DNA from: a bacterium | GTDB lineage: Bacteria; Eisenbacteria; RBG-16-71-46 | NCBI GenBank assembly: GCA_043779265.1 | Contig: JAYWEM010000077.1 | Span: 1-23,353 of the forward strand | Length of the DNA stretch: 23,353 bases | Direction of reading: 5' to 3' | Shown here: positions 2,005 through 23,353 of the stretch, one piece after another | Layout: each line of letters begins with the position of its first letter | Position numbering within the stretch: the stretch's first letter is position 1 | Program-made: the position numbers and the translations under genes | Notes under the pieces: generated by a model | What the model was told of the DNA's origin: nothing | What the model saw: the letters and a program-made list of their open reading frames with translations, nothing else | The model's database searches: none

Positions 2005-2056
2005 GGGGAGCGCGCCCGATCAGGAGGAGGAGCCGTGGGAATGCCAGAGTGAGGGC

Positions 2057-2065
2057 AATCTATCA
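2057..2065 (-). promoter_or_regulatory. Candidate extended -10 promoter (TGnTAGATT) for cbiMQO
   Basis: Minus strand reads TGATAGATT about 50 nt upstream of the cbiM ATG, in a GC-rich background. No convincing -35. Confidence 0.4.
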
Positions 2066-2184
2066 GCGTGCTCGCGAAAACGCTTGCCCGAGCCGGGTGC
2101 CCCTCCCCACACTGCCGCCGGTCGAAGAACCGCGCGGATGCACATCATGGTCACTTTCGTCAGCTCTTTCCGGATCGGGCTCGC

Positions 2185-4784: not shown

Positions 4785-4810
4785 CCCGCGCATGATCGAA
4801 GGGCCAGCCC

Positions 4811-5572: not shown

Positions 5573-6369
5573 CCGACGGCAGCCGCAAGTGGCTCGAACG
5601 GGACCTCGCGCCCGAACCACAATGACAGGGCGCGTCTCGCCTGATGCACGAGCAACCCGAGGCCATCCACCGCTTCGCGGCCATCCGCGCGCGCCATGCG
5701 CACCCAGTTCGTCGGCTCGGGTCCGTACACGAGATCCACGAGGCAGGCACCGCGATTGACCCGCTCGAGCGGCACCGGGAGCTCGTTCTCGCCGAGCGGC
5801 GTGCAGTTGACGACGATGCTCGCCTCGGAGAGCGCATCACTCTCCTCGTCGCTCCTCCAGCCTAGGAAGCGCGAGTCCAACCCCTCACCCCACGCGAATC
5901 GCGAGTCCTCGGGTCGTCGCGAGCTCACCGTGACGTTGCGGCAGCCGGCCCACTCCAACGCGATGGCAAGACTGCGTGCCGACCCACCGGCACCCAGCAA
6001 TACGACGCGTTCGCGTTCGGGCTCTCGGTGGAGTTCGCGCATCAGGTCGACGAACCCGGGGCCGTCGGTCGTCTCGCCGAACCAGCCACGCTCCTGGAAC
6101 ACGATCGTGTTCACCGACCGCGCACGCTCGGCCGCGATCGAGGCACGTGAGACGGCATCCCGCGCCGCTTCCTTGAGCGGATGCGTCACGTTGCACCCGA
6201 CGAATCCCTGCTCGGCCAGGGAAGCGAGCCGGGCGGGCAGTTCGGCGATCGAGGTGCGAATGGCATGCGACTCGACCGCGATGCCGAGCGCCGATGCGCC
6301 CGCGCGATGCAGATCCGGGGAGCGCGTATAGGCGAGCGGATCGCCGAGCACGGCGAGCCGGATGGTCAT
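5560..6369 (-). CDS. aroE: Shikimate dehydrogenase family protein, 269 aa
   Basis: ATG 6369 (ATGA overlap with the lgt stop). Motifs LGDPLAYTRSP, GCNVTHPLK, SVNTI, TTDGPG, LLGAGGSAR, VNCTPLG, DLVY and DGLGLLVHQA. Confidence 0.9.
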   Translation of the reverse strand: MTIRLAVLGDPLAYTRSPDLHRAGASALGIAVESHAIRTSIAELPARLASLAEQGFVGCNVTHPLKEAARDAVSRASIAAERARSVNTIVFQERGWFGETTDGPGFVDLMRELHREPERERVVLLGAGGSARSLAIALEWAGCRNVTVSSRRPEDSRFAWGEGLDSRFLGWRSDEESDALSEASIVVNCTPLGENELPVPLERVNRGACLVDLVYGPEPTNWVRMARADGREAVDGLGLLVHQARRALSLWFGREVPFEPLAAAVGWPR

Positions 6370-7163
6370 CGCGCCCCCGACTCCGCCGCGGCGCGCCGAC
6401 GCAGGCGCATGATCATGAGCACGCTGATCAGCACGATCGCGACGCTCGTCATCTGGCTCTCGGTGAAGCCGAACGCCCCGAGCTGGAGCAGGACGGCGTC
6501 GGTCTCCCACGACCTCGTCATGTCGATCGGGATCCGCACTGTCGCGAACAGCGCGAGGAAGGTCCAGAACAGGACGCCGGGCGCGCGCAGACGACTGCGG
6601 AGGAACCACACGACCAGGAACAGGAGCAGTCCGGCCGTCGCATTGTAGAGCTGAGAGGGATGGACCGGCACGGTACCGAACTCGAGGTGGGCGAACGAGT
6701 CCGCTGGGAACAGAACGCCGAAGGGTCCATCCGTCGGGCGGCCGTAGCAGCAGCCGTTCAAGTAGCAGCCCAGCCGTCCGAACAGGGTGCCGAGTGCCAA
6801 GGCCGGCGTCAGGGCATCGGCAGCGAGCCAGCGTGGCAGGCCGAATCGCGTCGCCGAGACGAGCGCCGCCAGCGTGCCGGCGATGATGCCGCCGTAGAGC
6901 GTCAGCCCTCCCTGCCACACCGCCACGATGCTCCCCCACTCGCTGCGGAACTCCTGGAGGTGCTCGAGCACATAGAGGGCGCGGGCGCCGAGGATCGACG
7001 CGATCAGTGCGATGAGGATCACGTTGACGAGGCGGTCCTCGTCGAGCCCCAGCCGCTTCGCCTCGCGCAAGGACAACCAGGTGCCGACGAGGAACGCGAT
7101 CGCCATCATCGCGCCGTACGAGCGCACGTGCAGGGGGCCGAAGCTCAGCAATTCGGGATGCAT
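6366..7163 (-). CDS. lgt: Prolipoprotein diacylglyceryl transferase, 265 aa
   Basis: ATG 7163 (TGATG overlap with the rodA stop). Motifs MHPELLSFGPLHVRSYG, GARALYV, WQGGLTLYGG, GRLGCYLNGCCYG and HPSQLY. Confidence 0.93.
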   Translation of the reverse strand: MHPELLSFGPLHVRSYGAMMAIAFLVGTWLSLREAKRLGLDEDRLVNVILIALIASILGARALYVLEHLQEFRSEWGSIVAVWQGGLTLYGGIIAGTLAALVSATRFGLPRWLAADALTPALALGTLFGRLGCYLNGCCYGRPTDGPFGVLFPADSFAHLEFGTVPVHPSQLYNATAGLLLFLVVWFLRSRLRAPGVLFWTFLALFATVRIPIDMTRSWETDAVLLQLGAFGFTESQMTSVAIVLISVLMIMRLRRRAAAESGAR

Positions 7164-8386
7164 CAATACTCCCGGCGCCGCAGCGCCACGTTCTGGAGCA
7201 GTCCGATCTGCATGCAATTCACGATCAGCGCAGTGCCCCCATAGGACAGGAACGGCAGAGGGACCCCGGTCACCGGAGCCCAGCCGATCGTCATGAGCAT
7301 GTTGACCACGACGTGGAAACAGAGTGCCGTGGTGACGCCGACCGCGACCAGGCTGGCGAATCCGTCGCGTGCGACGGTGGCCAGCCGATAGCCGCTCAAG
7401 ATGACGGTCACATACAGTAACAGCACGAAGGCGGCGCCGAGCAGTCCCATCTCCTCTCCGACGACCGAGTAGATGAAGTCCGTGTGCCGCATCGGCAGGA
7501 ACGCGAGCCCCTTCTGGGTCCCCTTGAGGAACCCCTTGCCGGCCAGCCCGCCCGAGCCGATCGCGATCTTGCTCTGGATCACCTGATAGCCGGCGCCGGA
7601 GGGGTCGCCCTCGGGGTTGATGAACGTCTCGATGCGCCGTTTCTGGTAGTCGTGCAGGTGGTTCCACAGATAGGGCATCGACGCACCCACGCCGATGTTC
7701 AGCGCGAGCATCACGAGCAGTGTCGACATGCGCGGGCGGAACACGGCGACGATCAGCGCGAAGAGGCCGACGAACCACCACAGCGTGCCCGTCACGAAGA
7801 ACAACCCCATGTTCAGGATCGGCGAGAGGCCGAGGAGCAACTGCCCCGCCGGCATGCCCGCCCAGAAGTACATGGCGATGAGCATGGCGGGGAACGAGGA
7901 TGCGGTGCCGAGATCCGGCTCCTTGGCGACCAAGACGAACGGGACCATCGTCAGGATCAAGGGCGGCAACCACCACCGCATGCGCGTGAGATCGAGCTTG
8001 GCATGATCGAAGAAGCGGGCCAGCACGAAGCATGTCGCGATCTTGGCGATCTCGGAAGGTTGGAACTGGAGCGGTCCGATCTCGATCCATCGCTTGGCGC
8101 CCATGCGCTCGACGCCGATCAGGAAGACCAACACGAGGAGCACGAGCGAGATGCCGTAGAGCGGCCAGGACAGTGAGTCGTAGACGCGGTAATGGATGCT
8201 CGCGACGACGACCGCCGCGACCAGTGCGAGCCCGAACCACACGAGCTGCTTGATCCACAGCCCCTCGTGGGCGCCCGGAACGGACGTGGCGCTGTACACC
8301 GTGAGAAGGCCGATGACCACCAGCCCGAACGTCGCGAGCGCGAGTGGCCAGTCGACCGTGATCGGCCGCCCCGGGACCGGGCTCAT
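7163..8386 (-). CDS. rodA: Rod shape-determining SEDS glycosyltransferase RodA, 407 aa
   Basis: Motifs GAKRWI, FQPSEIAK, EPDLGT, GYQVIQSKIAIGSGG, HTDFI and GVPLPFLSYGG. Lies downstream of mrdA. Confidence 0.96.
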   Translation of the reverse strand: MSPVPGRPITVDWPLALATFGLVVIGLLTVYSATSVPGAHEGLWIKQLVWFGLALVAAVVVASIHYRVYDSLSWPLYGISLVLLVLVFLIGVERMGAKRWIEIGPLQFQPSEIAKIATCFVLARFFDHAKLDLTRMRWWLPPLILTMVPFVLVAKEPDLGTASSFPAMLIAMYFWAGMPAGQLLLGLSPILNMGLFFVTGTLWWFVGLFALIVAVFRPRMSTLLVMLALNIGVGASMPYLWNHLHDYQKRRIETFINPEGDPSGAGYQVIQSKIAIGSGGLAGKGFLKGTQKGLAFLPMRHTDFIYSVVGEEMGLLGAAFVLLLYVTVILSGYRLATVARDGFASLVAVGVTTALCFHVVVNMLMTIGWAPVTGVPLPFLSYGGTALIVNCMQIGLLQNVALRRREY

Positions 8387-8398
8387 CGCAGCCCCCGC

Positions 8399-10264
8399 TC
8401 AGTCACCGATCACCCCCAGAGAATCCGATCGAAGCGTGCGGGGAGGCGCCGGACGCGCCGGAGCGACGCGCGTGCTGTCGCCCAGCAATACGCGACGCAG
8501 CACGTGTCCGGCGACGGGCGCCGCGACGCTGCCGCCATGTCCACTGTTCTCGGCGACGACCGCGAGCGCGATCCTCGGCGCATCGGCCGGGGCATAGGCG
8601 ACGAAGAGTGCATGGTCATCCCCATGGGGATTCTGCGCGGTGCCCGTCTTCCCCGCGACGGCGACGCCCGCGACGCGGGCCGCACGAGCCGTACCGGCAT
8701 CGACCACGAGGCGCATCGCCTCGTGCACGACGTCCCAATTCGACTGGGCCGTCTGCACGCCCGACTCGATGGGCTTGCTGATTCGGAAGGACGGAACCCC
8801 CTCGACCTCGCGCACGACATGGGGCCGGATGGGCGTGCCTCCGTTGGCGATGATCGCGGTCATGGTCGCCAGTTGCAGCGGCGACGTCAGCAACTCGCCC
8901 TGTCCGATACTCAAGTTGAGCAGGATGCCGCGCGGCCATGTGCCCCGCTTGTAGCGCTTGTCATACCAGGCCCGATCGGGGACGAGTCCGCGCGTCTCAG
9001 CTGGCAGGTCGATCCCGGTCTTCTCGCCGAGGCTGAATGCACGCGCGGTGGACTCGATCCTGTCCAATCCCAGCTTGAGGCCGAGCTGATAGAAGTAGAC
9101 GTCGCAGGAGTGCTGCAGCGCCCCGACGGTGTTCACACTGCCGTGCCCGGTCCGGAGCCAGCAGCCGAAGCGCCGACCGCCGAAGAAGTAGCCTCCCGAG
9201 CACCCGACCGGGAAGCGCGTCTCGCCGTCGATGAGATCGTCCCGCAACCCCGCCATGATGGTCACCATCTTGAACGTCGAGCCGGGCGGATAAGCGCTCT
9301 GGATGGCGCGATTGAGCAGCGGGTAGGCGCCGTCGCGATTGATCTCCTTCCACCTCGCGCTCGAGATGCCCACGGCGAACTCGTTGGGGTCGAACGCGGG
9401 CTTGCTCACCATGGCCAGGACGCCGCCATCGCGCGGATCGAGCACGACCGCTGCGCCGCGTTCGATGCCCGACATCGCCGCCTCGAGCGCCATCTGGATG
9501 TCGACATCGATCGTCAGCGTGAGGCCGTGTCCGGGAACGGGAAGCCGCGGCGGGCCCTCGGAGAGCGTCGCGACGCGCTTACCCATCGCGTTCACCACCA
9601 CGAACTCGGCGCCGTCGACTCCGCGGAGCACATCCTCGTAGCGTCGCTCGAGCCCGGTCTTGCCGATCAGGTCACCGCTGCGATAGCCGCGGTCGGGACG
9701 GTCCGCAAGCTCGCTCTCATTGATCTGCCCGGCATAGCCGAGCAACTGGGCCATCATCGTGCCCGCGGGATAGTGGCGGATCGGCGAGACCAGCACATCG
9801 ATGCCCGGCAGATCGCTGCGGTACTCCTCGACTGCCGCCATCACCCCATAGGGCGCGGCGCGACGCAGCACGGCCGTCTGTCCGGACCGATTGGCCTCGC
9901 GGACCCGGCGCCTGACGCCGGCCGTGTCGTCCTCGATCAGCGCCGCAACGCGCGTCAGCCACTCGGGTGCGATCACCGAGCGAGCTCGCGTCAGACTCTC
10001 GGCGGGAAGCGGCCGGAACACGATGTCGAAGCTCGGCTGACTGTCGGCCAAGAGGCGGCCGCTTCGATCGCGGATCACGCCGCGCGGGGCACGCAGGATG
10101 TCGAGCCGGATACGATTCTGATCGGCGAGCCGAGCCAACTCCTCGTGCTCCACGACCTGGAGCCGGAGCAGCCCGAGCAGGATGAGCGCGAAGCCCGCGA
10201 GTGCGATCGCACCGAGGGCTGCATGTCGCTGATCGCGGTCGTTAGGAAGAGGACCTTGAGGCAT
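8399..10264 (-). CDS. mrdA: Penicillin-binding protein 2 (class B transpeptidase), 621 aa
   Basis: N-terminal TM helix, APRGVIRDR, RHYP and GKTGLE. Catalytic motifs STFK, SCD and KTGT. mreBCD-rodA context. Confidence 0.96.
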   Translation of the reverse strand: MPQGPLPNDRDQRHAALGAIALAGFALILLGLLRLQVVEHEELARLADQNRIRLDILRAPRGVIRDRSGRLLADSQPSFDIVFRPLPAESLTRARSVIAPEWLTRVAALIEDDTAGVRRRVREANRSGQTAVLRRAAPYGVMAAVEEYRSDLPGIDVLVSPIRHYPAGTMMAQLLGYAGQINESELADRPDRGYRSGDLIGKTGLERRYEDVLRGVDGAEFVVVNAMGKRVATLSEGPPRLPVPGHGLTLTIDVDIQMALEAAMSGIERGAAVVLDPRDGGVLAMVSKPAFDPNEFAVGISSARWKEINRDGAYPLLNRAIQSAYPPGSTFKMVTIMAGLRDDLIDGETRFPVGCSGGYFFGGRRFGCWLRTGHGSVNTVGALQHSCDVYFYQLGLKLGLDRIESTARAFSLGEKTGIDLPAETRGLVPDRAWYDKRYKRGTWPRGILLNLSIGQGELLTSPLQLATMTAIIANGGTPIRPHVVREVEGVPSFRISKPIESGVQTAQSNWDVVHEAMRLVVDAGTARAARVAGVAVAGKTGTAQNPHGDDHALFVAYAPADAPRIALAVVAENSGHGGSVAAPVAGHVLRRVLLGDSTRVAPARPAPPRTLRSDSLGVIGD

Positions 10265-10748
10265 GTCGACTCGGGCGGCGCCCGAAGAGGAGATGGAACA
10301 CGCTCAGGACGAGCGTGCCGACGACCGTCGAGACGATCGTGGCCACGAGCATCCTCGCGGCGAGGAACATCGGGCCCGCGGTGCCCTCGGCGAGGTCGAA
10401 CACCGACACCCAGCCCTGATGCACCGCCGTGGCTGCGGCCACCAGCACGAGTAGCGTGCGGGCGCTGTCGCGCACGAACGTGTTGGAGAGTCGCCCGACG
10501 GCGTAGCCGATGAGCGAGAGAGCGAGCGCGTGGCGCCCCAGCCAATGAGCCGTGTCGAGATCGGCTGCCAGCCCGAGCAGGAATCCGAACGTCGCGCCCC
10601 AGGCATCACCATGCCGCAGCGCCCACGCCACGGTCGCGATCGCGAGCACGTCGAGCACGATGCCTCGCGCCGAGAGCATCGGGAGCATGGTGGAACGAAG
10701 CAGCAGCACGACGAACGACAGCAGCAGCAACCCGGCCACGGGTCTCAT
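10242..10748 (-). CDS. mreD: Rod shape-determining protein MreD, 168 aa
   Basis: Small, very hydrophobic protein with a GFLLGLAADL motif, between mreC and mrdA. ATGA overlap with mreC. Confidence 0.88.
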   Translation of the reverse strand: MRPVAGLLLLSFVVLLLRSTMLPMLSARGIVLDVLAIATVAWALRHGDAWGATFGFLLGLAADLDTAHWLGRHALALSLIGYAVGRLSNTFVRDSARTLLVLVAAATAVHQGWVSVFDLAEGTAGPMFLAARMLVATIVSTVVGTLVLSVFHLLFGRRPSRHASRSSS

Positions 10749-11599
10749 CGTGTCCCCTTCACGGCGTCACGCGCGAGCCGCGGGGCCGGGGCGGCGTCCT
10801 CACCGGGCGCCATGGGGCCCGGTGCCACGAAGGCGTGTCGCAGCCGCGCGAAGCGGGCGGCCGCCTGCACCTCGATCTCCTGCATCAGCCCGGTCGGATC
10901 GGCCGAGACGCGTACGACGGTTCCGACGGGGAGGCCGCGCGGGAAGCGGACCGAGAGATCCGAGGTCACCACACGCTCGCCCACGCGCACGGTGTCCGAG
11001 AGCGGGACCGCCGTCATGAGCAGGCGCGGCAGCGGATCCTGCGAATAGCGCAGCACACCGTAGACCCCGGTCGTCTCGATCTCACAGGCCACCGCGAGAT
11101 TCGGGTCGGACAGCAGCGAGGCTCGCGCCCGCACCCCCCAACTCTCGGTGACTCGACCGATCAAGCCATCGCTCGTCAGCACGGCGTCGCCCACCGAGAT
11201 CCTGCGTCCGCGGCCTGCTCGCAGCGTGATCGTCGCGGGCGGCGCTTCGCCGGAGAACGCGAGCACCTCCACGGGCGTGAGCGGCAGACCATGCCAGACA
11301 TCGAGGTCGAGTTGCGTGCGCATCACCTGATTCTCGGCACCGGCGCTGCGCAACCTCGCGTTCTCCGTCTCGAGCTGAGCCACTCGGGCGTGCAGCGTCG
11401 CGTTCTCGGTCCAGGCGCGCAGGGCGTTCGCGCCTGTCATCACGACACGATCGAAGGGATCGAAGATCGCGGCGCCGGCACCTCGCAACCATCCGGTCGG
11501 GAGTCGCTCTCCCACCACCAGCAGGAACAGCGAGAGCGCCGTGTAGGTCGCGACCATCACGACGCTGCGGCGCTCCGCGGGTGGCAGCAGGCTGGGCAA
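10745..11599 (-). CDS. mreC: Rod shape-determining protein MreC, 284 aa
   Basis: TM anchor, coiled coil (ENATLHARVAQLETENARL), GLIGRV and VVTSDLSVRFPRGLPVGTV. TTG start 3 nt after the mreB stop. Confidence 0.92.
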   Translation of the reverse strand: MPSLLPPAERRSVVMVATYTALSLFLLVVGERLPTGWLRGAGAAIFDPFDRVVMTGANALRAWTENATLHARVAQLETENARLRSAGAENQVMRTQLDLDVWHGLPLTPVEVLAFSGEAPPATITLRAGRGRRISVGDAVLTSDGLIGRVTESWGVRARASLLSDPNLAVACEIETTGVYGVLRYSQDPLPRLLMTAVPLSDTVRVGERVVTSDLSVRFPRGLPVGTVVRVSADPTGLMQEIEVQAAARFARLRHAFVAPGPMAPGEDAAPAPRLARDAVKGTR

Positions 11600-11602
11600 T
11601 CG

Positions 11603-12640
11603 TCAGTCCCGGTGCGCGCTCAGGATGACCTTCTCGTAGACCTCGAGGCTCTCGAGGATCTTGCCGGCCCCACGCACGACGCACGTGAGCGGATCCTGGG
11701 CGACGCGGATGTTGAGGTTGGTGACCTCGCGAAGCAGCAGATCGAGGCCACGGAGGAGCGCACCACCGCCCGTCATGTAGATGCCGCGATCGACGATATC
11801 AGCCGCCAGTTCCGGCGGCGTCCGCTCCAGCGACTCCCGGAGCGCATTGACGATCTGGCCCACCGGCTCCTGAAGCGCCTCGCGGATCTCGACACTGGAG
11901 ACGCGCAGCGTGCGCGGGATGCCGCGCACGAGATCACGTCCCTTGATCTCCATGTCCATCTCCTCGGGGAGCGGGAACGCGGAGCCGATCTCGATCTTGA
12001 TGCGCTCGGCGGTCTGCTCGCCGATGAGCATGTTGTAGGCCTTCTTCGCATAGTTCGCGATCGCCTCATCGAGCTCGTCGCCACCGGTGCGGATGCTGGT
12101 CTTGGTGACGATGCCGTTCAAGGCGATGACCGCGATCTCCGTCGTGCCACCTCCGATGTCGACGACCATGTTGCCGGTCGGCGTGTCGACGGGCAGGTCG
12201 ACACCGATCGCGGCGGCGATGGGCTCGGGAACGAGCAGCACCTCGCGGCAGCCGGCGCGCATCGCCGAGTCGATGACCGCTCGCATCTCGACCTGCGTGA
12301 TCCCCGAGGGGACGCAGATGATGATGCGGGGACGCACCAGGAACTTGTGCTTCTGCACTCGGTGCACGAACGTCCGGAGCAGGTGCTCGGTGACCTGGAA
12401 GTCGGCGATGACGCCGTCCTTGAGCGGACGGATCGCGTTGATCTCATCGGGAGTGCGGCCGAGCATGAGCTTGGCTTCGCTGCCCACCGCGAGGACGCGG
12501 TTGGTGGCCTTCTCCACAGCGACCACGGAGGGCTCGTTGAGAACGATGCCGCGGCCCTTGACCCACACGAGCGTGTTCGCCGTGCCCAGGTCCATGGCCA
12601 CATCCGTGGAGAAGAACCCCATCAGACTGTCGAGGAACAT
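11603..12640 (-). CDS. mreB: Actin-like rod shape-determining protein MreB, 345 aa
   Basis: Motifs DLGTANT, EPSVVA, RPLKDGVIADF, EPIAAAIG, VDIGGGTTE and TGGGALL. Confidence 0.98.
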   Translation of the reverse strand: MFLDSLMGFFSTDVAMDLGTANTLVWVKGRGIVLNEPSVVAVEKATNRVLAVGSEAKLMLGRTPDEINAIRPLKDGVIADFQVTEHLLRTFVHRVQKHKFLVRPRIIICVPSGITQVEMRAVIDSAMRAGCREVLLVPEPIAAAIGVDLPVDTPTGNMVVDIGGGTTEIAVIALNGIVTKTSIRTGGDELDEAIANYAKKAYNMLIGEQTAERIKIEIGSAFPLPEEMDMEIKGRDLVRGIPRTLRVSSVEIREALQEPVGQIVNALRESLERTPPELAADIVDRGIYMTGGGALLRGLDLLLREVTNLNIRVAQDPLTCVVRGAGKILESLEVYEKVILSAHRD

Positions 12641-12792: not shown

Positions 12793-12991
12793 CCGATTGG
12801 GCGAGTGAGCCGGGCCGCTCCCCGGCTCGCGAGGGCGAGCCTGGCCCGCCGCGATCCGCCTCAGTCCTCCTGGAACGGGAGCGATGCGCCGATGAGAGGG
12901 GTATGACATAGTGCGAGCCGCGCTGCAGGCCCGCCCAATGGGCGCCGTTGCGCCCTTCCGACGACCCCGAGGCCAGAGGCACTCTCCCGGC

Positions 12992-15130
12992 ATGTCGCGT
13001 CCTGGACGTCTTGTAGCGCTGTTCCTGCCGGTGTTGGTCTCACTGGGCGTCCACTCCAAGCCTGGACGAGCCCAGAGCCAACCCTCGGGGCGCTTCGCAT
13101 TCGCCGACACCACGCTGCTGAGGGACACCCTCGGAATCGGCTTCGACGGCCTGTTCCAGGTGGCTGACAGCCTGCAGGTGCTCCCGGATTCGGTGCGCGC
13201 GCTGATGATCCGCTACCGGCTCTCGATCCCCCGGCTCGTCTTCATGGTGGATAGCCTCGGGATGCCGATCGACTCGCTGGGCCCGGCGATCGAGCGCGAG
13301 CGGTTCAACCCGTTCGCGCAGCGACGCGAGGGCATGGCGCTCGCGAGGCGGAACTTCCGCTACTCGAGCGGCTACACGATCCAGCGGACGAGCACGTCCT
13401 GGACGAATGGCGGCGATTTCGATGTCACGCAGGGGGCCCTGTTCGTCCGCAACTTCACCAATACCCTGGTGGACCGCTATCGCGCCGGCGGAGTCGAGAG
13501 CATCCGGCAGACGAGGGACTCCAACACCGAGGCCGGCTGGTTCCTGAATCGCGAGATCTCGCTGGGAGGAAAGCTCAATCTGTCGCGCTTCTACACCAAG
13601 GATCCCTCGAGCACGTCCAACGAAGGCGAGGTGAAGAACGAGTTCCTCTTCTCATCGCGCTACAAGAGCGGGCCGGGTCGCAAGCTCGGTGCCGAACTCA
13701 ACGCGTCCGGCGGCTATCTCGACCTCTCCAACCGGCAACTCATCAAGCGTGGGCTCTCGGGCAGCATCGATGGTCGGCTGCGATTCCAGCGCGGCAGCGT
13801 CTTCTCGCATGACCTCTCGGGTAGCGTCAACGGCAACGCGTCCGCGACGAGGCGGCCCGAGGTCGCGGTCGGTCAGTTGGAGACGCGCGACCTCTCCACC
13901 AGCCTGCGCGGCGCCATGAACGTCTTCAGCAACAAGCCCGTCAGTCTCATCGTCAACTACAACCTGCGCCGTACACGCGTCGAGACGCCGACCGAGACGC
14001 TCAGCGTCAACCAGATCCTCACCTCCGGGCAGGGCGCGGATGCGACGGTGCGGATCCGGCAGGCGAACGACCGCTACGTCAATCTGACCGCCAATCTCGG
14101 ACGGAGCGGCCAACAGACCGGCACGCGAAGCGACCTGTCGATGAAAGCGGTGGGACGCTACGCGCTGGCCGGCTTCCAGATCGATGCCGACTACGGCGAC
14201 ACGCACGCCGAATCCGACTTCCCACGGCAGCGTCGCTCCTACGGCTATGTCGAGACCCAGGACGGCAACAGCGCCAACAGCACCGTGACCCGGCCCTTCG
14301 GCCCCAAGCTCGTGAGCAAACTCACCAGCGCCATCAGCCTGACCCGATACCGCTATGCGGCGACGGCCGATTCGGCAACGCCACCCGCGCCGAGGGACTC
14401 GTATCGGCAGAACTATCGCATCGAGCTGCTGTACAACCGGAGTCAGCGCCTCAACACGAGAGTGGCGCTTGACATCGGGCTGACACGATCGATCAACCTG
14501 CTGCCGCAGAGTGTCACGTCGAACAACGACACGCGTTCCTATCGCAGCGAGTGGAGCTGGAGCTACCGGATCCTGCGCGGGCTCACGGTGACGCAGACCA
14601 ACTCGCTCACGGCCGACTATCGCTTCTATCCCTTCGCCGAGTCGCGCAACGACGTTTCGCTCGACTACAACACGATCACCAACTTCTCGACCGTGCTCAC
14701 CCCCCGACTGACACTCGACCTGCAGCACGTGGCGCGCGCCCAACCGAGGGGCAGCTATGTGCGCGAGGCCGATGGGTTCGAGTACTTCCAGCCGGCCGAT
14801 GAGAACCTGAGCTACACCCTGCGGGGTAACATCACCTACGCACCCAGCCCGGCACTGTCGCTGTCGCTGCGTCCCGAGTATCTGGCCACCGACCGCAACG
14901 GCACGCTGAACGGCGTGGAGACGCCCGAGCGCGCCAATCGGCGACTCAATTTCTCGGGTGGAGCGAATCTGAATGTGCCGGTGGGGGCCAAGGGCCTGCT
15001 CACGGGCAGCATCCAGCGCAGCTACAACGCCGATCGTTCGATCACCTTCGAGGGGGGGCGTCCCATTCCCAGCCCCCGCTCGGAGACCGACTTCTGGAAC
15101 GGGAGCCTCCAGTTCTCATGGCAACTCTGA
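12992..15130 (+). CDS. Uncharacterised large outer-membrane beta-barrel protein, ~712 aa
   Basis: Likely start ATG 12992 (MSRPGRLVALFLPVLVSLGVHSKPGRAQ, signal-like). About 590 residues of S/T/N/G/Y/R-rich amphipathic strands, ending in a beta-signal-like strand FWNGSLQFSWQL. Codon usage is host-like. Confidence 0.7.
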   Translation: MSRPGRLVALFLPVLVSLGVHSKPGRAQSQPSGRFAFADTTLLRDTLGIGFDGLFQVADSLQVLPDSVRALMIRYRLSIPRLVFMVDSLGMPIDSLGPAIERERFNPFAQRREGMALARRNFRYSSGYTIQRTSTSWTNGGDFDVTQGALFVRNFTNTLVDRYRAGGVESIRQTRDSNTEAGWFLNREISLGGKLNLSRFYTKDPSSTSNEGEVKNEFLFSSRYKSGPGRKLGAELNASGGYLDLSNRQLIKRGLSGSIDGRLRFQRGSVFSHDLSGSVNGNASATRRPEVAVGQLETRDLSTSLRGAMNVFSNKPVSLIVNYNLRRTRVETPTETLSVNQILTSGQGADATVRIRQANDRYVNLTANLGRSGQQTGTRSDLSMKAVGRYALAGFQIDADYGDTHAESDFPRQRRSYGYVETQDGNSANSTVTRPFGPKLVSKLTSAISLTRYRYAATADSATPPAPRDSYRQNYRIELLYNRSQRLNTRVALDIGLTRSINLLPQSVTSNNDTRSYRSEWSWSYRILRGLTVTQTNSLTADYRFYPFAESRNDVSLDYNTITNFSTVLTPRLTLDLQHVARAQPRGSYVREADGFEYFQPADENLSYTLRGNITYAPSPALSLSLRPEYLATDRNGTLNGVETPERANRRLNFSGGANLNVPVGAKGLLTGSIQRSYNADRSITFEGGRPIPSPRSETDFWNGSLQFSWQL

Positions 15131-15798
15131 TCAAGCGCCTCTTGACGCTCGGCTGCGTGGCACTCGCCTCGCTGACCGCGTCGTGCACGAATCCGTTCCG
15201 ACCGGCCGATCCGCCGCCGCCCTCGGGCAACGCCGTGGTCGAGAACTTCGCGACGCCGGCGGCCGTGCTCGAGACGATCGCCGACGCCATCCGCAACAAG
15301 GGTCCGAGCGGGCAGACGGCCTACGCCAATGCGTTCGCGGAGTCGACCGCGACCCGGCTCACGAGCCGGGCGTTCTACGCGTTCCACTTCCCCGCCGTGG
15401 TCGCCAATTGGCGTACGATCTCCCAGCGCGAACCCCCGAGTCCCTGGGATCTGACGCTGGAGCGCAACTTCTACAACTACCTCGTCGGCGTCTACGAGAC
15501 GTTCGACTACACGTTCGTCTGGGAGCGCGATTCGGGCTCTCCGAACGACGAGATCGACGACGCTTCGGGAACCGCACTGCTGCACCGCAAGTACACGCTC
15601 GTCGCCAGTTCGGAGAGCACGCTCGAGGTGAAGGTCATCGCCATCGGCTTCGTGGACCTCTTCCTCTACAAGGACAGCGGCCGTTGGGCGATCTACCGCT
15701 GGCAGGACCGGATCGACCCCCAGGTCGGGGTGACGCCAGTCGATCCCGATGAACTCTCGATGGGCGCGAGACGTCTCAACTCGCAGTCCGCACCGTAG
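15118..15798 (+). CDS. Uncharacterised lipoprotein (possible NTF2/SnoaL-like fold), 226 aa
   Basis: Signal peptide ending LTASC (Cys23), then TNPFRP and a Pro-rich tether. C-terminal WAIYRWQD. 13-nt overlap with the barrel gene. Confidence 0.72.
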   Translation: MATLIKRLLTLGCVALASLTASCTNPFRPADPPPPSGNAVVENFATPAAVLETIADAIRNKGPSGQTAYANAFAESTATRLTSRAFYAFHFPAVVANWRTISQREPPSPWDLTLERNFYNYLVGVYETFDYTFVWERDSGSPNDEIDDASGTALLHRKYTLVASSESTLEVKVIAIGFVDLFLYKDSGRWAIYRWQDRIDPQVGVTPVDPDELSMGARRLNSQSAP

Positions 15799-15806
15799 GA
15801 GGGGTG

Positions 15807-16646
15807 ATGGGAACGACCTCGAATCGAGCCTCGAGCACGAGGCGCCTGCTCGCCACGCTCGCATTGGCGCTGGCCGCCTGCGGCCTCGCGGGCTGTTTCA
15901 ACCCCTTCCAGCCCCTGATCTCCTCGAGCCGCGGCGTCTCGTCCCCGGCTCCCGTCCCGAACTCGCCGGCCAATGCGGTCAAGCTGATCGAGTGGTGCTT
16001 CAACAATCGCGACCCGGATGTCTATCGTGAGGTGTTCACGGATGACTACGTGTTCGTGTTCGGCTTGGCCGACACGGCCGGCAACGCGTATCGCGACCGG
16101 CCCTATCGCCGCGAGGACGAGCTGGCCTCGGCGACGAACCTTTTCGTGGGCGGCGGCGGCAGCCCGCCGGCCTCGCGCATCTCGCTGACGTTCAATCGGA
16201 CGCTGATCGCACTGGGTGACTCGCGTCCCGGCTCCAATCCCCGCTGGCATAAAACGATCCTGACCGACGTGAACCTGAGCGTGCAGATCAGTGAGGGTGA
16301 CAACCAGAGCAGCCTCGAGGTGACCGGCAAGGCACGCTACTACGTCGTCCGCGGCGATTCGGCCAGGATCCCCGACGAACTGGTCCAGAGAGGATTCCGC
16401 CCCGATTCGACGCGCTGGTGGGTGGAGCGCTGGGAGGACGAGACCCTTCCTTCGGGCTCGATCGTGTTCGACCCCGGAACCGTGCGTGTGAGGGCCGGGA
16501 ACAGCCCATCAGCGGCCGAGTCGGATGTGGTCATCCGGATGAGCATGGGAGAGTTCAAGGACCGCTACCGGTCGTTCCCGTTCGCCCAGGCGGCCGTCAC
16601 GGCGCTGGAACAGGCGAGACGCCAGCGAGGTCCACGCACTCGCTGA
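15807..16646 (+). CDS. Uncharacterised lipoprotein, paralog of the upstream gene, ~279 aa
   Basis: AGGAGG at 15797-15802 precedes ATG 15807 (GTG 15804 is also possible). Canonical lipobox LAGC, then FNPFQP, and WWVERWEDE near the C-terminus. Confidence 0.75.
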   Translation: MGTTSNRASSTRRLLATLALALAACGLAGCFNPFQPLISSSRGVSSPAPVPNSPANAVKLIEWCFNNRDPDVYREVFTDDYVFVFGLADTAGNAYRDRPYRREDELASATNLFVGGGGSPPASRISLTFNRTLIALGDSRPGSNPRWHKTILTDVNLSVQISEGDNQSSLEVTGKARYYVVRGDSARIPDELVQRGFRPDSTRWWVERWEDETLPSGSIVFDPGTVRVRAGNSPSAAESDVVIRMSMGEFKDRYRSFPFAQAAVTALEQARRQRGPRTR

Positions 16647-18084: not shown

Positions 18085-18128
18085 CCAAGGGCCCGAGGAT
18101 CGCAACCCTCGGGCCCTTGGTCTTGCTT
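18085..18128. terminator. Probable bidirectional intrinsic terminator between the convergent gdhA and porV-like genes
   Basis: Perfect 14-bp stem CCAAGGGCCCGAGG (18085-18098) / CCTCGGGCCCTTGG (18107-18120) with an 8-nt loop. Followed by TCTTGCTT on + and CATTGCTCT on -. Confidence 0.85.
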
Positions 18129-18143: not shown

Positions 18144-19220
18144 TCAGAACTTGAGCTTGAGTCCGATCTCGACCGTGTCGTCGAAGAAGTTCCGGACCGG
18201 CCGGAAGGCCACGTCCACGGCGAGCGTCGTCGAACCCGTCTTGACCTTGGCCCCGGCGCCGAACGCGTAGCCGGAATAGAGGTCGTCACCGGTGTCGAAC
18301 GAAAGCGACTCGTCGCCTGTCAGCCCGTCCAACTCGCTCGTCACGGTTCCGAACCACGAACCGCGCAGCGCGAACATGTCCCGGTAGTCCCACTCCGCGC
18401 CGGCGATGTAGGAGTCGCCGACGAAGTTGTTGTTCTGGAACGCGCCGAGCAGTTGCAGGCGGTTGTCCGCCCGCTGATACAGGTTGTAGGTCGCGGCGAG
18501 CGTGAAGAACGAGGGCATCTCGAACGGAGCGGTCGAGAAGCTCAGCGTGCGGTTCGCGGCGGACGGATCGGATCCCGGAGGCAGCGTGTTGATCTCCAGG
18601 TTCTCACCACCGAACTCCATCGAACCACCGAAGTTCTTCATCACCATGCCGAGCTTGAGTCCGCGCCAGCCGGTGTCGTACTGCACGCCGAGGTCCATCG
18701 CCACGCCCGTGGCGGAGACGCTGAGCACGTTCTCATTGACGATGTTGATGGTGCCGCCGAAGTTGACGCGATCGGTGAACTGCTTCGCCCAGGAGACACC
18801 CAGCACCGTGAACGTGGGCTGGATGATCTCGCCGGTGCCATCCGGGGCTTCCTCGGTCGTGACCAGCACTTCACCGATGGAGAGCACCTTGGCGTTGAAG
18901 CCGAGCACGCCGAGTCCGCCCGCGCGTGCCGCGACCGCGGCGTAGTTCACCTTCATGTCGGCGATGTACTGCGTGTGGCTGAACAGCGCCTCGCTGCCTT
19001 CCAGCCCGGCGAGACCCGCCGGGTTCCAGAAGATCGCGTCGACGCCTGTGACGTCACTGGTGATACCGCTACCCAGCGCCGAGCCTCTTGGCCCGACACT
19101 CAGCAACAGCTCGGTGGCTCCGCCTGTTCCCTTGCGCTCGTCCGAACCCGCCCATGCGCTGGACGCGGCCAGCGCGAGCAGGGTCGTCAGACAGAGCGCA
19201 CGCAGGATATGCCGGCTCAT
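18144..19220 (-). CDS. PorV/PorQ-family (FadL-like) outer-membrane beta-barrel, ~358 aa
   Basis: SD GGGAGG, then ATG 19220. Signal peptide MSRHILRALCLTTLLALAASSAWA. Family-typical N-terminus GTGGATELLLSVGPRGSALG..AIFWNPAGLA, plus MDLGVQY and LGMVMKNFG. C-terminal IGLKLKF. Confidence 0.82.
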   Translation of the reverse strand: MSRHILRALCLTTLLALAASSAWAGSDERKGTGGATELLLSVGPRGSALGSGITSDVTGVDAIFWNPAGLAGLEGSEALFSHTQYIADMKVNYAAVAARAGGLGVLGFNAKVLSIGEVLVTTEEAPDGTGEIIQPTFTVLGVSWAKQFTDRVNFGGTINIVNENVLSVSATGVAMDLGVQYDTGWRGLKLGMVMKNFGGSMEFGGENLEINTLPPGSDPSAANRTLSFSTAPFEMPSFFTLAATYNLYQRADNRLQLLGAFQNNNFVGDSYIAGAEWDYRDMFALRGSWFGTVTSELDGLTGDESLSFDTGDDLYSGYAFGAGAKVKTGSTTLAVDVAFRPVRNFFDDTVEIGLKLKF

Positions 19221-19267
19221 ATTCCGTCCTCCCTTGAAGTCGTTCGCGTTCATGGTCGTGTCCTCCA

Positions 19268-22200
19268 TCAGAAGCTGTTCAGGCGTTCCTTCTCCATGAA
19301 GATGACCAGACGGCTCGTGTGGGCGCCGACTCCGGGGACTTCGACGTGATAGATGTACACGCCGCTGCCGACCGGAAGGTCATTCTTCGTCTGGAGATCC
19401 CAATCGAGGATCGAGGTCGAGGCGTCCGTCTTCTCGAGGGTCCGCACGAGTTGGCCGGCCAGGTTGAAGATCCGAACGGTGCAGTTCTCCGGCATGTTCA
19501 TGAATCGGAGCCTGCGATTGAACTGGTTGAGTTCGTAGGTCGAGCGCGCGTAGTACGGATTCGGCACCGCACGGATCCGATCGAGCTGCGACTTGGCGAG
19601 CGAGTTGTTGCCGCGCACCAGCGCCTGCGTGTCGAACACGTAGATGTCGTTGTCCTTGGCGGGATTCGCCCACGTCCACTCGAACGCGTCGCCGTCATCG
19701 ACGATGTCGCCCGGTGTGCGCAGGCGGGCGGTGAGCGCCCACATGAACGGCCAAGTGCCCGAGAACACCCCGCCGTTCACCATGTACTGGGCCTTGGGCG
19801 TGTCGCTGTACGGACTCCGCAGCACTCCGAGGTACTCGCGGTCCCCGTCCGCCGCGTCGGTCGGGGCCCATGTGGAGTCCTGGGTCGCTGGCTGGTCGCC
19901 CAACGGCCGCAGCGTGCCATCGTTGTCCGCCATCGCGCGTTCCGAGAAGATCACGTCCAGTTGGACGTTGTTGATCTCGTCCCAAACCTGGAAGTTCACA
20001 TCGTGGAACCCGGCGTAGATGTAGCCGCGGCCCGCGGCCGGGGCTCCGCCTCCCGCGGGGAACAACTCCCTGCGGAAGTACCGGTAGGCCTTCTGCCGGG
20101 CCGTGGTGCTGAATCGCAACCGCACCGTGGTGAACGAGTCCGGATTGGACGAGGGGTTGATCGTGCTGCCGAAGAAGTCGTCCCCCGAGCCGGCACCACC
20201 ACCAAAGGCGGCCTGCCCGAAGTCCGCCCCCGTGTAGGCACGGCGATTCGCCGTGTTCAGATTCTGGTACGCCGCGTCCTGGAACTGCGCCGCGTATTTG
20301 CCGAACACCGTCACCTTGAGGCCGTCGACCACTCGGTAGTCATCGTCCCCATTGCGATTCAACTGCCCGGAGTACTTGACCTCGTTGAGCGTGCTGTCGA
20401 TCAGCGACCACGAGAAGTCGATCTGCGTGCTCGCGATCGTGCCGATCGGCCCGACATAGGGCGGTATCAGCGCATCGAACACGACCTTGTACACGTGCCC
20501 GGTCACGAGGTCCGGATTCACGACCTGGACGCTGACGACGTCGGTCGAAGGCGCCCGGGCCGTGTCCTTGCGCAGATACGTCACCGGGGTCGCCGAAGCG
20601 GTGGCCAGGTCGGTGCCCGCGGCCGCCCGCTGCGGGATGACGCGGATGACCGCCTGGGCGTTCTCCAGCACCTTCGGGAGACCCGTGGCGTTGTAGGCGT
20701 ACGACGTCACCGCGAAGTAGTACTCGGTGCCATTGCGGAGCGCCCCGCCCCTCACGGCGTCCTGCGTGATCGTGTGGTCGAACTTCACACCCACGTCCGA
20801 TCCGAAGGCGACCGGGAACTCGGGGATCAGCTGCCCCGTGTTCACGTCGAACACCTGATCGTAGATGACGCGCGTGCCGTTGATCTCATCGAACGTGCCG
20901 ACGCGCCTCCACGGACCGGCCACCGTTGCGCCCTGGTAGATGTTGTAGCCCTCGAACGCATAGCCGTCTTCCGTGTAGTCCGTGCGCGAACGGGCATCCC
21001 AACTGAGATGGACGCTCTGGTGGTCGACGCTCGCACTGACACGCGGCTGGCTCGGCGGGCTCGGCAGATCGAAGTTCGCATCGAACGCAGCCTGAGCGAA
21101 CTCGTCATTGAAGCGCAGCGCCGAAATCGAGGACAGCCGGTCGTTGCCCTGCCCGACCACGATCCCGACCACGATGATCTGCGTGTCGCCGGGCGCCATG
21201 GTGAACGGACCCGACGAGAGCATCATTCGGCGGTCGGCCGGGTTCGAATCGAGCCAGTCGAACGGACCCGGGCTGACAGGATCGCCGGCCACCTGGAACC
21301 GCGTCTCATTGCCATTCGGATCGAACACCGGGCTGCCGTCGGGGTTGAGACCCTTCATGTAGTTGTAGGTCTCAGCCGTCGAGTGCGGGTCGGTGCCGTT
21401 GATGTACTTGTTGAACGAGGAGAGTCCCAGCGTGTCGCCGCTGTCCCCGATCGGCCCCCGGAAGAAGTCGAACCCGAGCGCTGGCGGATTGCTGCCGTAG
21501 CCGCCGTCGTTGTTGTTCGAGTTGTACACATAGCCGAGCGACCGCGGCTTGCCGGTGTTGTCGGGCAGCGTGTCGCATCCCACGAGGTCATCCGTGAAGC
21601 CCGGGCCACCGCCCAGATCCGGATCCGACCACTGCGAGATGTACATGTTCTCGAGCAACTGGGCGCTCTTGTTGATCATCGTGTACTCGATGAACACCGT
21701 GTTGCCGAGCGCGCCCTGGCGATTGAACGCGAACGTCTTCTGCGTGATCTCCACGCCGAGCGCCAGTGAGCCACCGGCATCGTTCGTGTGATTGGCCTGA
21801 ATGGCGTCGTTGTAGACGCACCAGTTCATCATGTCGCCTGCGACATCTGGGCCCGGCACATCCACCGAGTCGCCCTCGGCTGGGGTCGACGTGTCGGGAA
21901 GGCGATACATCTTCCACGGCGCGCCCTTCGGCGCCGCACCCGACATGTACTCGCTCCACGAGTGGTGGACGAGTGGATCCTCGTACGCCGCCTCGTTCGG
22001 GACACGCTCGACACGCGAGGAGTCCTCCGGATTGCCGGTGTAGCGGATCATCTTGTAGACGATGTAGTCCGGATCGGTCGGATCATCGGGCAAAGCGCCG
22101 ATCATCTTCCCGGGGCCGTACTCCATCGAGTACTCGGCGACAACCGTGCGTTCCTGGCCGGCCACCGTCGCGCCCAGCCACATGCCGGCAGCGAAGATGA

Positions 22201-22471
22201 TCCCCTTGTCCGTGCCTCGCGGCCAATACATGCCCGTGTTGCCGGCTGCCTGGTCGAAGCCGAACGATCCATTGTTGGACACCCAGAGATTGGCGGTGTT
22301 GACGTCGATACGGCGGTCGATGTCCAGCGTCTGCACCCGCGTCGGTCGGTTCACCCCGAACGGGCTCACCTGGCGAAGCTGAGTGGGACGAGCAGCATCG
22401 ACCGTGCTCACGCCCGACGAGATCACGGCTGCTGCCGCGAGACACGCGAGTGCGACACGACGGAGATCCAT
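19268..22471 (-). CDS. Large secreted protein with an FnIII-like domain and a T9SS type-A-like C-terminal domain, 1067 aa
   Basis: SD AGGAGG, then ATG 22471. Signal MDLRRVALACLAAAAVISSGVSTVDA. FnIII-like PSPPSQP..VHLSWD..FEGYNIY..YYFAVTSY. CTD IRAVPNPY..VRIFNLAGQLVRTL..WDL..VGSGVYIYHV. Confidence 0.82.
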   Translation of the reverse strand: MDLRRVALACLAAAAVISSGVSTVDAARPTQLRQVSPFGVNRPTRVQTLDIDRRIDVNTANLWVSNNGSFGFDQAAGNTGMYWPRGTDKGIIFAAGMWLGATVAGQERTVVAEYSMEYGPGKMIGALPDDPTDPDYIVYKMIRYTGNPEDSSRVERVPNEAAYEDPLVHHSWSEYMSGAAPKGAPWKMYRLPDTSTPAEGDSVDVPGPDVAGDMMNWCVYNDAIQANHTNDAGGSLALGVEITQKTFAFNRQGALGNTVFIEYTMINKSAQLLENMYISQWSDPDLGGGPGFTDDLVGCDTLPDNTGKPRSLGYVYNSNNNDGGYGSNPPALGFDFFRGPIGDSGDTLGLSSFNKYINGTDPHSTAETYNYMKGLNPDGSPVFDPNGNETRFQVAGDPVSPGPFDWLDSNPADRRMMLSSGPFTMAPGDTQIIVVGIVVGQGNDRLSSISALRFNDEFAQAAFDANFDLPSPPSQPRVSASVDHQSVHLSWDARSRTDYTEDGYAFEGYNIYQGATVAGPWRRVGTFDEINGTRVIYDQVFDVNTGQLIPEFPVAFGSDVGVKFDHTITQDAVRGGALRNGTEYYFAVTSYAYNATGLPKVLENAQAVIRVIPQRAAAGTDLATASATPVTYLRKDTARAPSTDVVSVQVVNPDLVTGHVYKVVFDALIPPYVGPIGTIASTQIDFSWSLIDSTLNEVKYSGQLNRNGDDDYRVVDGLKVTVFGKYAAQFQDAAYQNLNTANRRAYTGADFGQAAFGGGAGSGDDFFGSTINPSSNPDSFTTVRLRFSTTARQKAYRYFRRELFPAGGGAPAAGRGYIYAGFHDVNFQVWDEINNVQLDVIFSERAMADNDGTLRPLGDQPATQDSTWAPTDAADGDREYLGVLRSPYSDTPKAQYMVNGGVFSGTWPFMWALTARLRTPGDIVDDGDAFEWTWANPAKDNDIYVFDTQALVRGNNSLAKSQLDRIRAVPNPYYARSTYELNQFNRRLRFMNMPENCTVRIFNLAGQLVRTLEKTDASTSILDWDLQTKNDLPVGSGVYIYHVEVPGVGAHTSRLVIFMEKERLNSF

Positions 22472-22505
22472 GGCGTTCCTCCTGCGATTCATCGCGCCCA
22501 CCACC

Positions 22506-23353
22506 CTAGAAGCTCGCCCGCACGCCGAAGCGCACGAGTCGCGGGTTCGAGTAGATATTGGGGTTGTTCTGAGCGAGGTCGTAAAGCTTGGCACCCTGCG
22601 CTCCGGTGTCATTGAGGAACGTCTGACCATCGGCGGTATGGAGCCAGCCGGTCGCGTTCGGCGATCCGGTTCCGGTGTAGACCGTGAACGGGTTCTTCGC
22701 GTCGAGCGCATTGAGCACCCAGACGAAGCCGTCGAACTTGGTTGTGCCCAGCGTGAAACCGCGGCTGGCCTTGATGTCGACTGTGGACGACCACGGGCCG
22801 GTGCGAGAGTTCAACGGGCCGATCGGCGACGAGTTGACGTTCGCCAGCGTGACCTCGTTGTAGATGCTCGTCGGTGTGTACGGCGTGCCCGAGCCGACGT
22901 TGTAGAGCACATTCACACTGGTGTTCTCCAGGATCGGCCACTCGCCCCACTTCGGGCCCTCACCCTTGCCGAGTTCCCAGTCCAGGTTCATCGAGATCTT
23001 GTGACGCTGATCGAAATCGAGCGGCGCCGTCTGCTTGGGCGGGTTGCTCGCCGTCCAAGCGATGTTGCCCTGTGAGTTCGAGACCGAGCCCGTGCCCTGC
23101 GCGTACGACAGGCTGTAGTTGATGCTGGCCGCCACGTGATTCGTGCGGCGCATCGTCCAGCCCACGTCCACGCCCTTGATCGTCGCGAAGTCGCGGTTGC
23201 GATACGACGAGAAGGCGTTCGGGAATGACGGGATGTTGGTGATCTCGACGAGGTCCTTCACGTCCTTGTAGTAGGCCGTGATGTCGATGCGGGCCCGATC
23301 GCCGACCATGCGCTCGAATCCGACCTCGTAAGCCGTCGTCTGCTCCGGCTTGA
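22506..23353 (-). CDS. TonB-dependent receptor, C-terminal barrel portion (5'-truncated by the window edge)
   Basis: Frame is open to the window end: KPEQTTAYEVGFE..ITAYYKDVKDL..NRDFATIKGVD..NYSLSYAQG..PLDFDQRH..GSGTPYT..VLNALD..PRLVRFGVRASF. These are typical TBDR motifs with a terminal Phe. Confidence 0.88.
   Translation of the reverse strand, partial: KPEQTTAYEVGFERMVGDRARIDITAYYKDVKDLVEITNIPSFPNAFSSYRNRDFATIKGVDVGWTMRRTNHVAASINYSLSYAQGTGSVSNSQGNIAWTASNPPKQTAPLDFDQRHKISMNLDWELGKGEGPKWGEWPILENTSVNVLYNVGSGTPYTPTSIYNEVTLANVNSSPIGPLNSRTGPWSSTVDIKASRGFTLGTTKFDGFVWVLNALDAKNPFTVYTGTGSPNATGWLHTADGQTFLNDTGAQGAKLYDLAQNNPNIYSNPRLVRFGVRASF

Follow-up and report, generated by a model that had tools for sequence, protein, structure and literature searches.

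SusD is the lid on SusC, and where polymers are taken up with high affinity, the SusC/SusD pair serves as the model in the Fibrobacterota-Chlorobiota-Bacteroidota (FCB) group. What, if anything, covers a TonB-dependent receptor that has no SusD gene beside it? The question is raised by a three-gene cassette in a window of 23,353 nt, which is the whole of one contig (JAYWEM010000077.1, hereafter C77; assembly GCA_043779265.1) from a bacterium of the Eisenbacteria lineage RBG-16-71-46. In this cassette, a receptor gene is followed by the gene for a 1067-aa surface protein (hereafter the cargo), which carries a type IX secretion system (T9SS) C-terminal domain (CTD), and by the gene for a small outer-membrane barrel of the PorV/PorQ family. 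We see an even chance that the products of the three genes form a single machine for uptake at the outer membrane, with the barrel holding a probably non-catalytic lid that captures the substrate. More tentatively, the cassette may represent a class of TonB uptake systems that is old, spans several phyla, does without SusD and is made from T9SS parts. The CTD tail, together with a private PorV/PorQ paralogue, would then serve as an address code by which each secreted lid reaches its own receptor, in bacteria with a T9SS that apparently lacks the known Gld motor.

Composition of the cassette

The genome of 3.43 Mb has 68% GC and is 92% complete, and the homologues nearest to the cassette proteins carry Candidatus Eisenbacteria labels. 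The open reading frames (ORFs) give three co-oriented, tightly spaced minus-strand genes for the receptor part, the 1067-aa protein and the barrel (Table 1), just as an earlier note on this DNA had described them. A gap of 34 nt separates the receptor stop from the 1067-aa ORF, an AGGAGG lies 7 nt ahead of the ATG of that ORF, and the cargo stop and the start of the barrel gene are less than 50 nt apart, with possible alternative starts of the latter at 19253 and 19268. The receptor gene is open at the contig end. We joined it to its N-terminal part on contig C189 through a unique exact overlap of 98 bp, of a sort that is common among contigs of this assembly, and both parts align to intact orthologues.

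The joined receptor has about 944 aa in all, with a CarboxypepD-like extension, a plug and a barrel. The part on C189 and an intact orthologue both score above cut-off for PF07715 and PF00593, and the protein is a TonB-dependent receptor with ordinary plug and barrel. Its scores of 67 and 79 bits (N-terminal part only) against the SusC/RagA model TIGR04056, with a cut-off of 368, place it outside SusC. The receptor loops L7-L10 are conserved (0.67-0.78, with loop boundaries set by eye), and the genome holds seven TonB C-terminal matches. No SusD-family gene lies upstream or downstream of the receptor in the window or C189, and the families PF07980, PF12771 and PF14322 have no match anywhere in the genome, while the control matched; the absence of susD that the earlier note had seen downstream of the receptor thus extends to the upstream side and to the whole genome. 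Among 121 genomes of the phylum the SusD families were found in 0, 1 and 0, with the control, B. thetaiotaomicron, matched. SusD families are therefore nearly absent from the sampled Eisenbacteria genomes.

The barrel scored 123 bits against the PorV/PorQ family model NF033709 (cut-off 90), and it has no match to TIGR03519 (PorP/SprF). Among the equivalog models it reached 66.7 bits for PorQ and 31 bits for PorV, whereas the housekeeping porV, which adjoins porU on contig C127, scored 137 bits for PorV. A quick tree of 61 barrels resolved five clades with support of 99-100 in the Shimodaira-Hasegawa-like approximate likelihood ratio test (SH-aLRT). In this tree the cassette barrel belongs to a clade of its own (SH-aLRT 100) and the housekeeping PorV to a separate one, which agrees with the proposal that the barrel is private to the cassette and not the sole housekeeping PorV.

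Conservation of the cassette and matching of its partners

The order receptor, cargo, barrel was kept in 27 of the 29 top loci (of the others, one is cut off and one is a lone paralogue) and in 40/40 wider loci, three of them with frameshifts; the latter set was hand-picked from 150 listed matches and overlaps the other sets. In the genome collection, the complete cassette is present at 52 of 68 loci (48 by script, four by row reading), and a further 14 end at a contig edge with the other partner kept. Among these 68 loci are some from records whose titles read Latescibacterota, Zixibacteria and Gemmatimonas. Such titles are not always right; a genome titled Ignavibacteriales, for one, falls in the same phylum sample as a Zixibacteria-titled one. 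Altogether, the cassette spans three checked GTDB phyla plus those record labels. In the second phylum, the N-terminal domain of the cargo (N-domain) was found in 144 of 201 genomes, and a receptor lies upstream in 28 of the top 30 loci. Within the host phylum, 83 of 121 genomes have a strong orthologue (E <= 1e-50), and no genome from nine of the families has one (counted by eye).

To count linkage we used 14 well-assembled genomes and 125 of 132 PorV rows, the seven excluded rows being second fragments of split matches. Pairs of plug and PorV within 9 kb in cassette order numbered 32 versus about one expected, and there were no reverse or opposite arrangements within this distance; one of the 14 genomes has no plug-PorV pair at all. 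The genome studied here holds four cassette types (A-D), the cassette in the window being type A. For the matching of types we took 25 linked pairs and 15 further high-scoring PorV loci, and compared each receptor and barrel with the nearest of this genome's four types. Receptor type and barrel type agree in 30/30 loci from the 14 genomes; in the same 40-locus set, housekeeping-type barrels lie beside porU in 8/8 cases and two further barrels were unassigned. Since the clade labels came from best matches, the independent fact is the agreement of the receptor. For the cargo, the type agrees at every A, B and D locus, but at only 5 of the 13 type C loci. The partners are 35-52% identical to orthologues in other phyla, compared with 22-30% to paralogues in the same genome. 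Thus, the reading in the earlier note stands against three of the findings that would have refuted it: the triplet is conserved, susD is missing both upstream and from the genome, and the barrel is not the housekeeping PorV.

The type D loci (L162 and L163, on contigs C20 and C156) have another order, namely cargo, receptor, barrel, a lipoprotein-like gene and a second cargo, and their cargoes are minimal, lacking the middle region described below.

Predicted contact between receptor and cargo

The contact between receptor and cargo was modelled on an orthologous pair with the same gene order (locus L079), whose receptor is 44-49% and whose cargo is 35% identical to ours. The input consisted of the receptor barrel minus its first two strands together with the N-domain, with alignments of 69 rows. 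The pair scored 0.37 (runs 0.52, 0.29 and 0.37) versus 0.00 for three controls, and the runs showed contact agreement of at least 63% and a partner predicted local distance difference test score (pLDDT) of at least 79. The mark used for an interface was reached by 116 of 157 solved complexes and by 2 of 215 mismatched pairs. The model lends weak support to a predicted contact between receptor and N-domain in the orthologue pair. Taken together with the prior from gene linkage, this weak pass raises the odds of a complex modestly, and the receptor-cargo interface that the earlier note had envisaged gains no more than that.

Structure of the cargo protein

The cargo has a signal peptide, as judged by eye, and its AlphaFold2 model (pLDDT 88.6, predicted template modelling score 0.80) is all-beta with no SusD fold. 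Its first domain is a galactose-mutarotase-like beta-supersandwich. The closest structures are the N-terminal domains of enzymes of the glycoside hydrolase (GH) types GH15, GH116 and GH94 (Z 19.4-18.3, root-mean-square deviation (rmsd) 2.8-3.9, 234-274 aligned residues). The fibronectin type III (Fn3)-like domain that follows was placed by secondary structure and Fn3 rows in Foldseek. The middle region has a column conservation of 0.36 versus 0.62-0.67 in the N-domain and CTD. It contains a small beta-sandwich like the outer domain of FlgK/FlgL (best Z 8.9, rmsd 2.4, 91 aligned) and an inserted domain of about 210 aa with no clear fold match, which is not proof of a new fold; Foldseek returned nothing for the middle region at E <= 0.001. 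Likewise, the cargo found nothing under E 0.79 among Protein Data Bank (PDB) sequences. In the ESM Atlas, residues 30-480 matched three unnamed clusters at 0.91-0.92 without Pfam annotation, and the cargo family comprises 3,859 clusters at E <= 1e-30.

Supersandwich homologues also occur outside cassettes (L047, L125, L157 and L095:10180-11940), some of them with an ordinary FlgD-like CTD, so that free T9SS cargo uses this domain as well.

The CTD subtype and the secretion system of the host

Against the type A model TIGR04183 the CTD is borderline, with 22.4 bits in the whole protein and 27.4 bits alone at a cut-off of 23, and only 1 of 17 cassette-type CTDs passed this cut-off. Every one of the 17 aligns with the PorZ model over its C-terminal part, whereas the type B model TIGR04131 finds none of them; a sub-threshold CHU_C trace was seen in the cargo (E 0.0095). 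A search of the genome with the CTD profile placed proteins from contigs C77, C154, C151, C58, C156, C20 and C135 at the top, and five of these seven sit in receptor-barrel cassettes. The tail is conserved as well: endings like MEKERLNSF are kept in 67 of 70 orthologues, and the ending differs by cassette type, being GKFA(V/I)xK in 8/8 type B and KSDRE in 8 of 11 type D proteins. The PorQ score of the barrel and the PorZ likeness of the CTD therefore make PorQ-PorZ a better precedent than the PorV shuttling proposed at first, of which the family assignment stands.

The best match to the PorZ model in the genome (61 bits) is a separate 931-aa frame amid glycosyltransferase-like genes (G000:C179:39306-42098), which is a possible PorZ counterpart.

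The host encodes SprA (contig C46; 467 bits, cut-off 200), which is present in 115 of 121 phylum genomes, and PorU (C127; 457 bits, cut-off 420), and it has about 107 type A CTD matches. With SprA, PorU and a housekeeping PorV present, the cassette would therefore depend on the T9SS translocon. GldL, GldM and GldN had no match in this 92%-complete genome, in a search that had no positive control over cut-off and did not include GldK. As a control for GldN, genomes titled Bacteroidia or Bacteroidaceae fell in an 11-genome phylum with 0/11 matches; without a working Gld control, the absence of these proteins is unproven. Accordingly, the earlier suggestion of a system possibly without a full T9SS has to be narrowed: it fails for SprA, PorU, PorV and the CTD proteins, and keeps its footing only for the motor and ring parts GldL, GldM and GldN, so that this T9SS has no recognised motor. 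In the FCB group, an operon links SprA to genes with TonB-C domains, a possible alternative energiser (10.1101/2025.01.14.632903).

Proposed mechanism and alternative explanations

Published precedents suggest the following course of events. Docking in SprA takes place with the cargo on a carrier barrel (PMC10994853), PorQ holds PorZ, whose CTD is retained (PMC5562754), and type B cargo is anchored by dedicated downstream barrels (PMC9143113, PMC12618676). By analogy, the SprA translocon would be the exit for the 1067-aa protein, carried on a PorQ-like barrel of its own, and the protein would stay bound to that barrel through its uncleaved, tailed CTD, as PorZ does on PorQ. The supersandwich domain may then lie over the outer loops of the receptor as a lid, a placement that the interface model supports weakly, and would do for the receptor what SusD does for SusC, presumably in nutrient import. 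The type A cassette is usually single-copy, highly conserved and set amid housekeeping genes, without glycosidases; given this lack of a glycosidase neighbourhood, peptides or cell-wall fragments are as plausible a substrate as polysaccharide.

Several observations weigh against a receptor with a barrel-held lid. At scores of 0.60 or lower, only 18 of the 157 solved complexes passed the interface mark, and so did both mismatches; moreover, the runs spread from 0.29 to 0.52 for an orthologue that is 35-49% identical and had two barrel strands removed, and the contacts were not returned. The receptor is missing beside two of the 68 and one of the 29 homologues. Pairwise distances among the orthologues correlate at only 0.47-0.73; shared descent is what these values reflect, and they were not counted as evidence of co-evolution. 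At 8 of the 13 type C loci, the best match of the cargo is the orphan protein of contig C58, with the type C cargo second. Both this protein (L167:3379-7926) and that of C151 (L168:4778-5842) carry a cassette-type CTD with no receptor or barrel match nearby. Likeness to the PorZ model is enriched among cassette proteins and not exclusive to them (6 of 18 PorZ-model matches in the genome are cassette-type, against 107 type A matches), and this model missed the CTD of C154. Finally, the supersandwich fold in itself shows no function and its invariant Asp cluster could be catalytic, while the presence of PorU makes CTD cleavage and lipid anchoring possible.

There are three rival explanations. 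The first keeps the same complex and makes the cargo an enzyme, whose Asp-rich supersandwich would cut or modify a polymer and pass the product to the receptor. The invariant cluster consists of D283, D285, D295 and D322; together with E241, D413 and R415 these residues are 98-100% conserved in 122 diverse homologues, and some of the matched supersandwich proteins are catalytic alone (mutarotase-like proteins and the GH174 fucanase, Z 13-14). However, the top matches are N-terminal domains. In enzymes of the GH15, GH94 and GH116 types, the supersandwich is followed by a helical catalytic barrel, and this barrel is missing from the cargo model, in which one linker helix leads on to beta domains. 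In addition, no enzyme family in Pfam, NCBIfam or PDB sequences matched the cargo, and the DxD-G..DD cluster may also bind calcium. We therefore regard an enzymatic cargo as unlikely.

A second explanation, which we hold to be slightly more doubtful, is an operon for secretion and uptake without a stable complex. Here the barrel would be a private shuttle, and the cargo would be released or lipid-anchored by PorU and act close to the receptor but not on it, a soluble scavenger being one example. In the published account (PMC10994853), PorV carries type A cargo transiently; PorU and orphan proteins with cassette-type CTDs are present in this genome, and the support for a complex is weak. On the other hand, there is already a housekeeping PorV for about 100 type A cargoes, a separate barrel clade has been kept with one receptor clade across phyla, which lasting contact explains more easily, and the CTD with its conserved tail resembles the retained CTD of PorZ.

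The least probable alternative lies outside nutrient uptake. In it, the receptor would use energy from TonB as a scaffold in envelope biogenesis, export, adhesion or contact with prey, and the cargo would be a canopy or adhesin, much as a canopy is carried by BamG beside BamA. This alternative can draw on the FadL-family barrel that supports an extracellular canopy by a larger barrel in the F. johnsoniae beta-barrel assembly machinery (BAM; PMC12611786), on the single-copy, housekeeping setting of the type A cassette, on a weakly PopA-like barrel upstream (Table 1) and on the T9SS energy source that remains to be explained if GldL, GldM and GldN, which were not found in the search without positive control, are missing, but the lack of strong orthologues in nine families ill suits an essential function, the paralogous type B cassette adjoins a putative glucoamylase-family gene, and the receptor plug and barrel are ordinary.

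Comparison with known systems

The barrel-held lid proposed here has counterparts in four described systems. SusC/SusD (RagA/RagB), in which SusC is joined by the surface lipoprotein SusD (PMC12611786), shares with the cassette a receptor that bears a CarboxypepD-like extension at its N-terminus and, directly after it, a surface partner of its own that would act as a cap. In contrast, our receptor is far under the TIGR04056 cut-off, its partner is an all-beta T9SS cargo and not a helical lipoprotein, and the anchor is a third gene, encoding a barrel. The PorQ-PorZ pair of the P. gingivalis T9SS attachment complex (PMC5562754) is alike in that a PorV-family paralogue permanently holds a protein with a kept CTD, and among equivalogs the best score of the cassette barrel is for PorQ and that of the CTD for PorZ/PorU. 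Both are nonetheless far under the equivalog cut-offs, there are four parallel sets here, and PorZ, in the account given in that source, serves the delivery of anionic lipopolysaccharide with no receptor involved.

Type B cargoes with PorP/SprF-type barrels (SprB-SprF and PG1035-PorP-PorE; PMC12618676, PMC9143113) share the arrangement of a cargo gene directly followed by the gene for its own 14-stranded barrel, as well as cognate pairing, orphan cargoes, and a barrel that anchors and addresses the cargo. Unlike these, the cassette has a CTD that is not type B (0/17 for TIGR04131) and a barrel of the PorV/PorQ family, and the destination of its cargo appears to be a TonB receptor and not the gliding track or cell wall. 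The orphans of C58 and C151, the latter of which sits after two lipoprotein-like genes, have a parallel in F. johnsoniae, where there are type B cargoes that are orphans too. In the BamG-BamH-BamM canopy of the Bacteroidota BAM (PMC12611786), a small FadL-family barrel by a large barrel also supports an extracellular cover, whereas BamA is the barrel beneath the cover, the parts of the canopy carry lipid anchors, and the portion of that report used here describes no CTD. In summary, the cassette departs from SusC/SusD on two defining features, and it is neither a PorQ-PorZ nor a type B pair.

Titles and abstract openings yielded no published description of the cassette; supplements, where such loci may be tabulated, were outside this scope. 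If our reading is true, the cassette is a SusD substitute in Eisenbacteria and a second, independent lid for a TonB importer. It would also take the rule that a cognate shuttle acts as an address beyond type B adhesins, to PorV/PorQ paralogues and to transport, assign a function to a large unannotated family, and provide a marker for uptake loci that are missed by predictors based on SusC/SusD.

Neighbouring genes and other features

Table 1. Coordinates of the cassette and associated features (window positions unless a contig or locus is named)
Feature	Location	Strand	Basis or remark
GC-rich hairpin of 14-16 bp, flanked by the barrel gene and by gdh, which is convergent	18085..18120	.	z -5.45
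PorV/PorQ-family barrel, cassette-specific paralogue, ~358 aa	18144..19220	-	NF033709 match, own clade
1067-aa secreted protein (cargo)	19268..22471	-	AlphaFold2 model, fold searches, family scans
T9SS CTD, cassette-specific subtype, conserved C-terminal tail (MEKERLNSF here)	19271..19600	-	profile and family scans
Variable middle region of cargo	19610..20605	-	model pLDDT 96
Galactose-mutarotase-like beta-supersandwich and linker helix	21062..22339	-	structure matches, conservation
Cargo domains by residue	supersandwich ~45-470; Fn3-like ~471-620; variable middle 626-955; CTD with tail 960-1067
AGGAGG ribosome-binding site of the 1067-aa gene	22478..22483	-	read from sequence
Receptor, C-terminal 281 aa	22506..23353	-	open at contig end
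Receptor, N-terminal 695 aa	contig C189:1-2085		joined via contig overlap
Small outer-membrane barrel, 446 aa	L169:2436-3773 (C189)		upstream of receptor; weakly PopA-like, 55 of 150 bits
GWxTD-domain gene	L169:4043-6264 (C189)		upstream of type A cassette
GWxTD-domain gene	L166:2302-3858 (C135)		downstream of type C cassette

On contig C189, the genes upstream of the receptor encode the small barrel, an SH3+NlpC/P60 protein and the GWxTD-domain protein, the SH3+NlpC/P60 gene lying between the other two. The small barrel was considered as a fourth subunit and is treated as optional: it occurs at 23 of 40 loci, is followed by a terminator-like hairpin, and was not detected in the loci of other phyla. 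In some relatives (L054, L061, L095, L096 and L112) it is tandemly duplicated. The SH3+NlpC/P60 gene was found upstream at 32 loci, all Eisenbacteria or unlabelled, and isolated neighbours for an amidase and for LD- and DD-carboxypeptidases occur at some loci. This neighbourhood fits plain synteny, and a role in cell-wall recycling is therefore only a lead. Among 60 chosen flanking ORFs, housekeeping genes predominate.

Downstream of the barrel gene, the earlier note had placed a strong terminator. The hairpin is indeed strong, but it is absent from the output of the terminator scan (0 sites), and T makes up only three of the eight bases that follow it on the cassette strand and five of eight on the strand of gdh. 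With no U-tract on the cassette strand, it is therefore at best a shared or gdh-side terminator, and probably one shared by the barrel and gdh genes.

The remainder of the window includes a minus-strand housekeeping block at 584-12640 (cbiM/cbiQ, shikimate dehydrogenase, lgt, rodA, PBP2, mreC and mreB). Three co-oriented plus-strand genes without Pfam match lie at 12911-16646 and adjoin gdh in some relatives; one is a barrel-like ORF of 739 aa, and the other two are lipoprotein-like ORFs that look related to each other (starts CTNPFRP and CFNPFQP).

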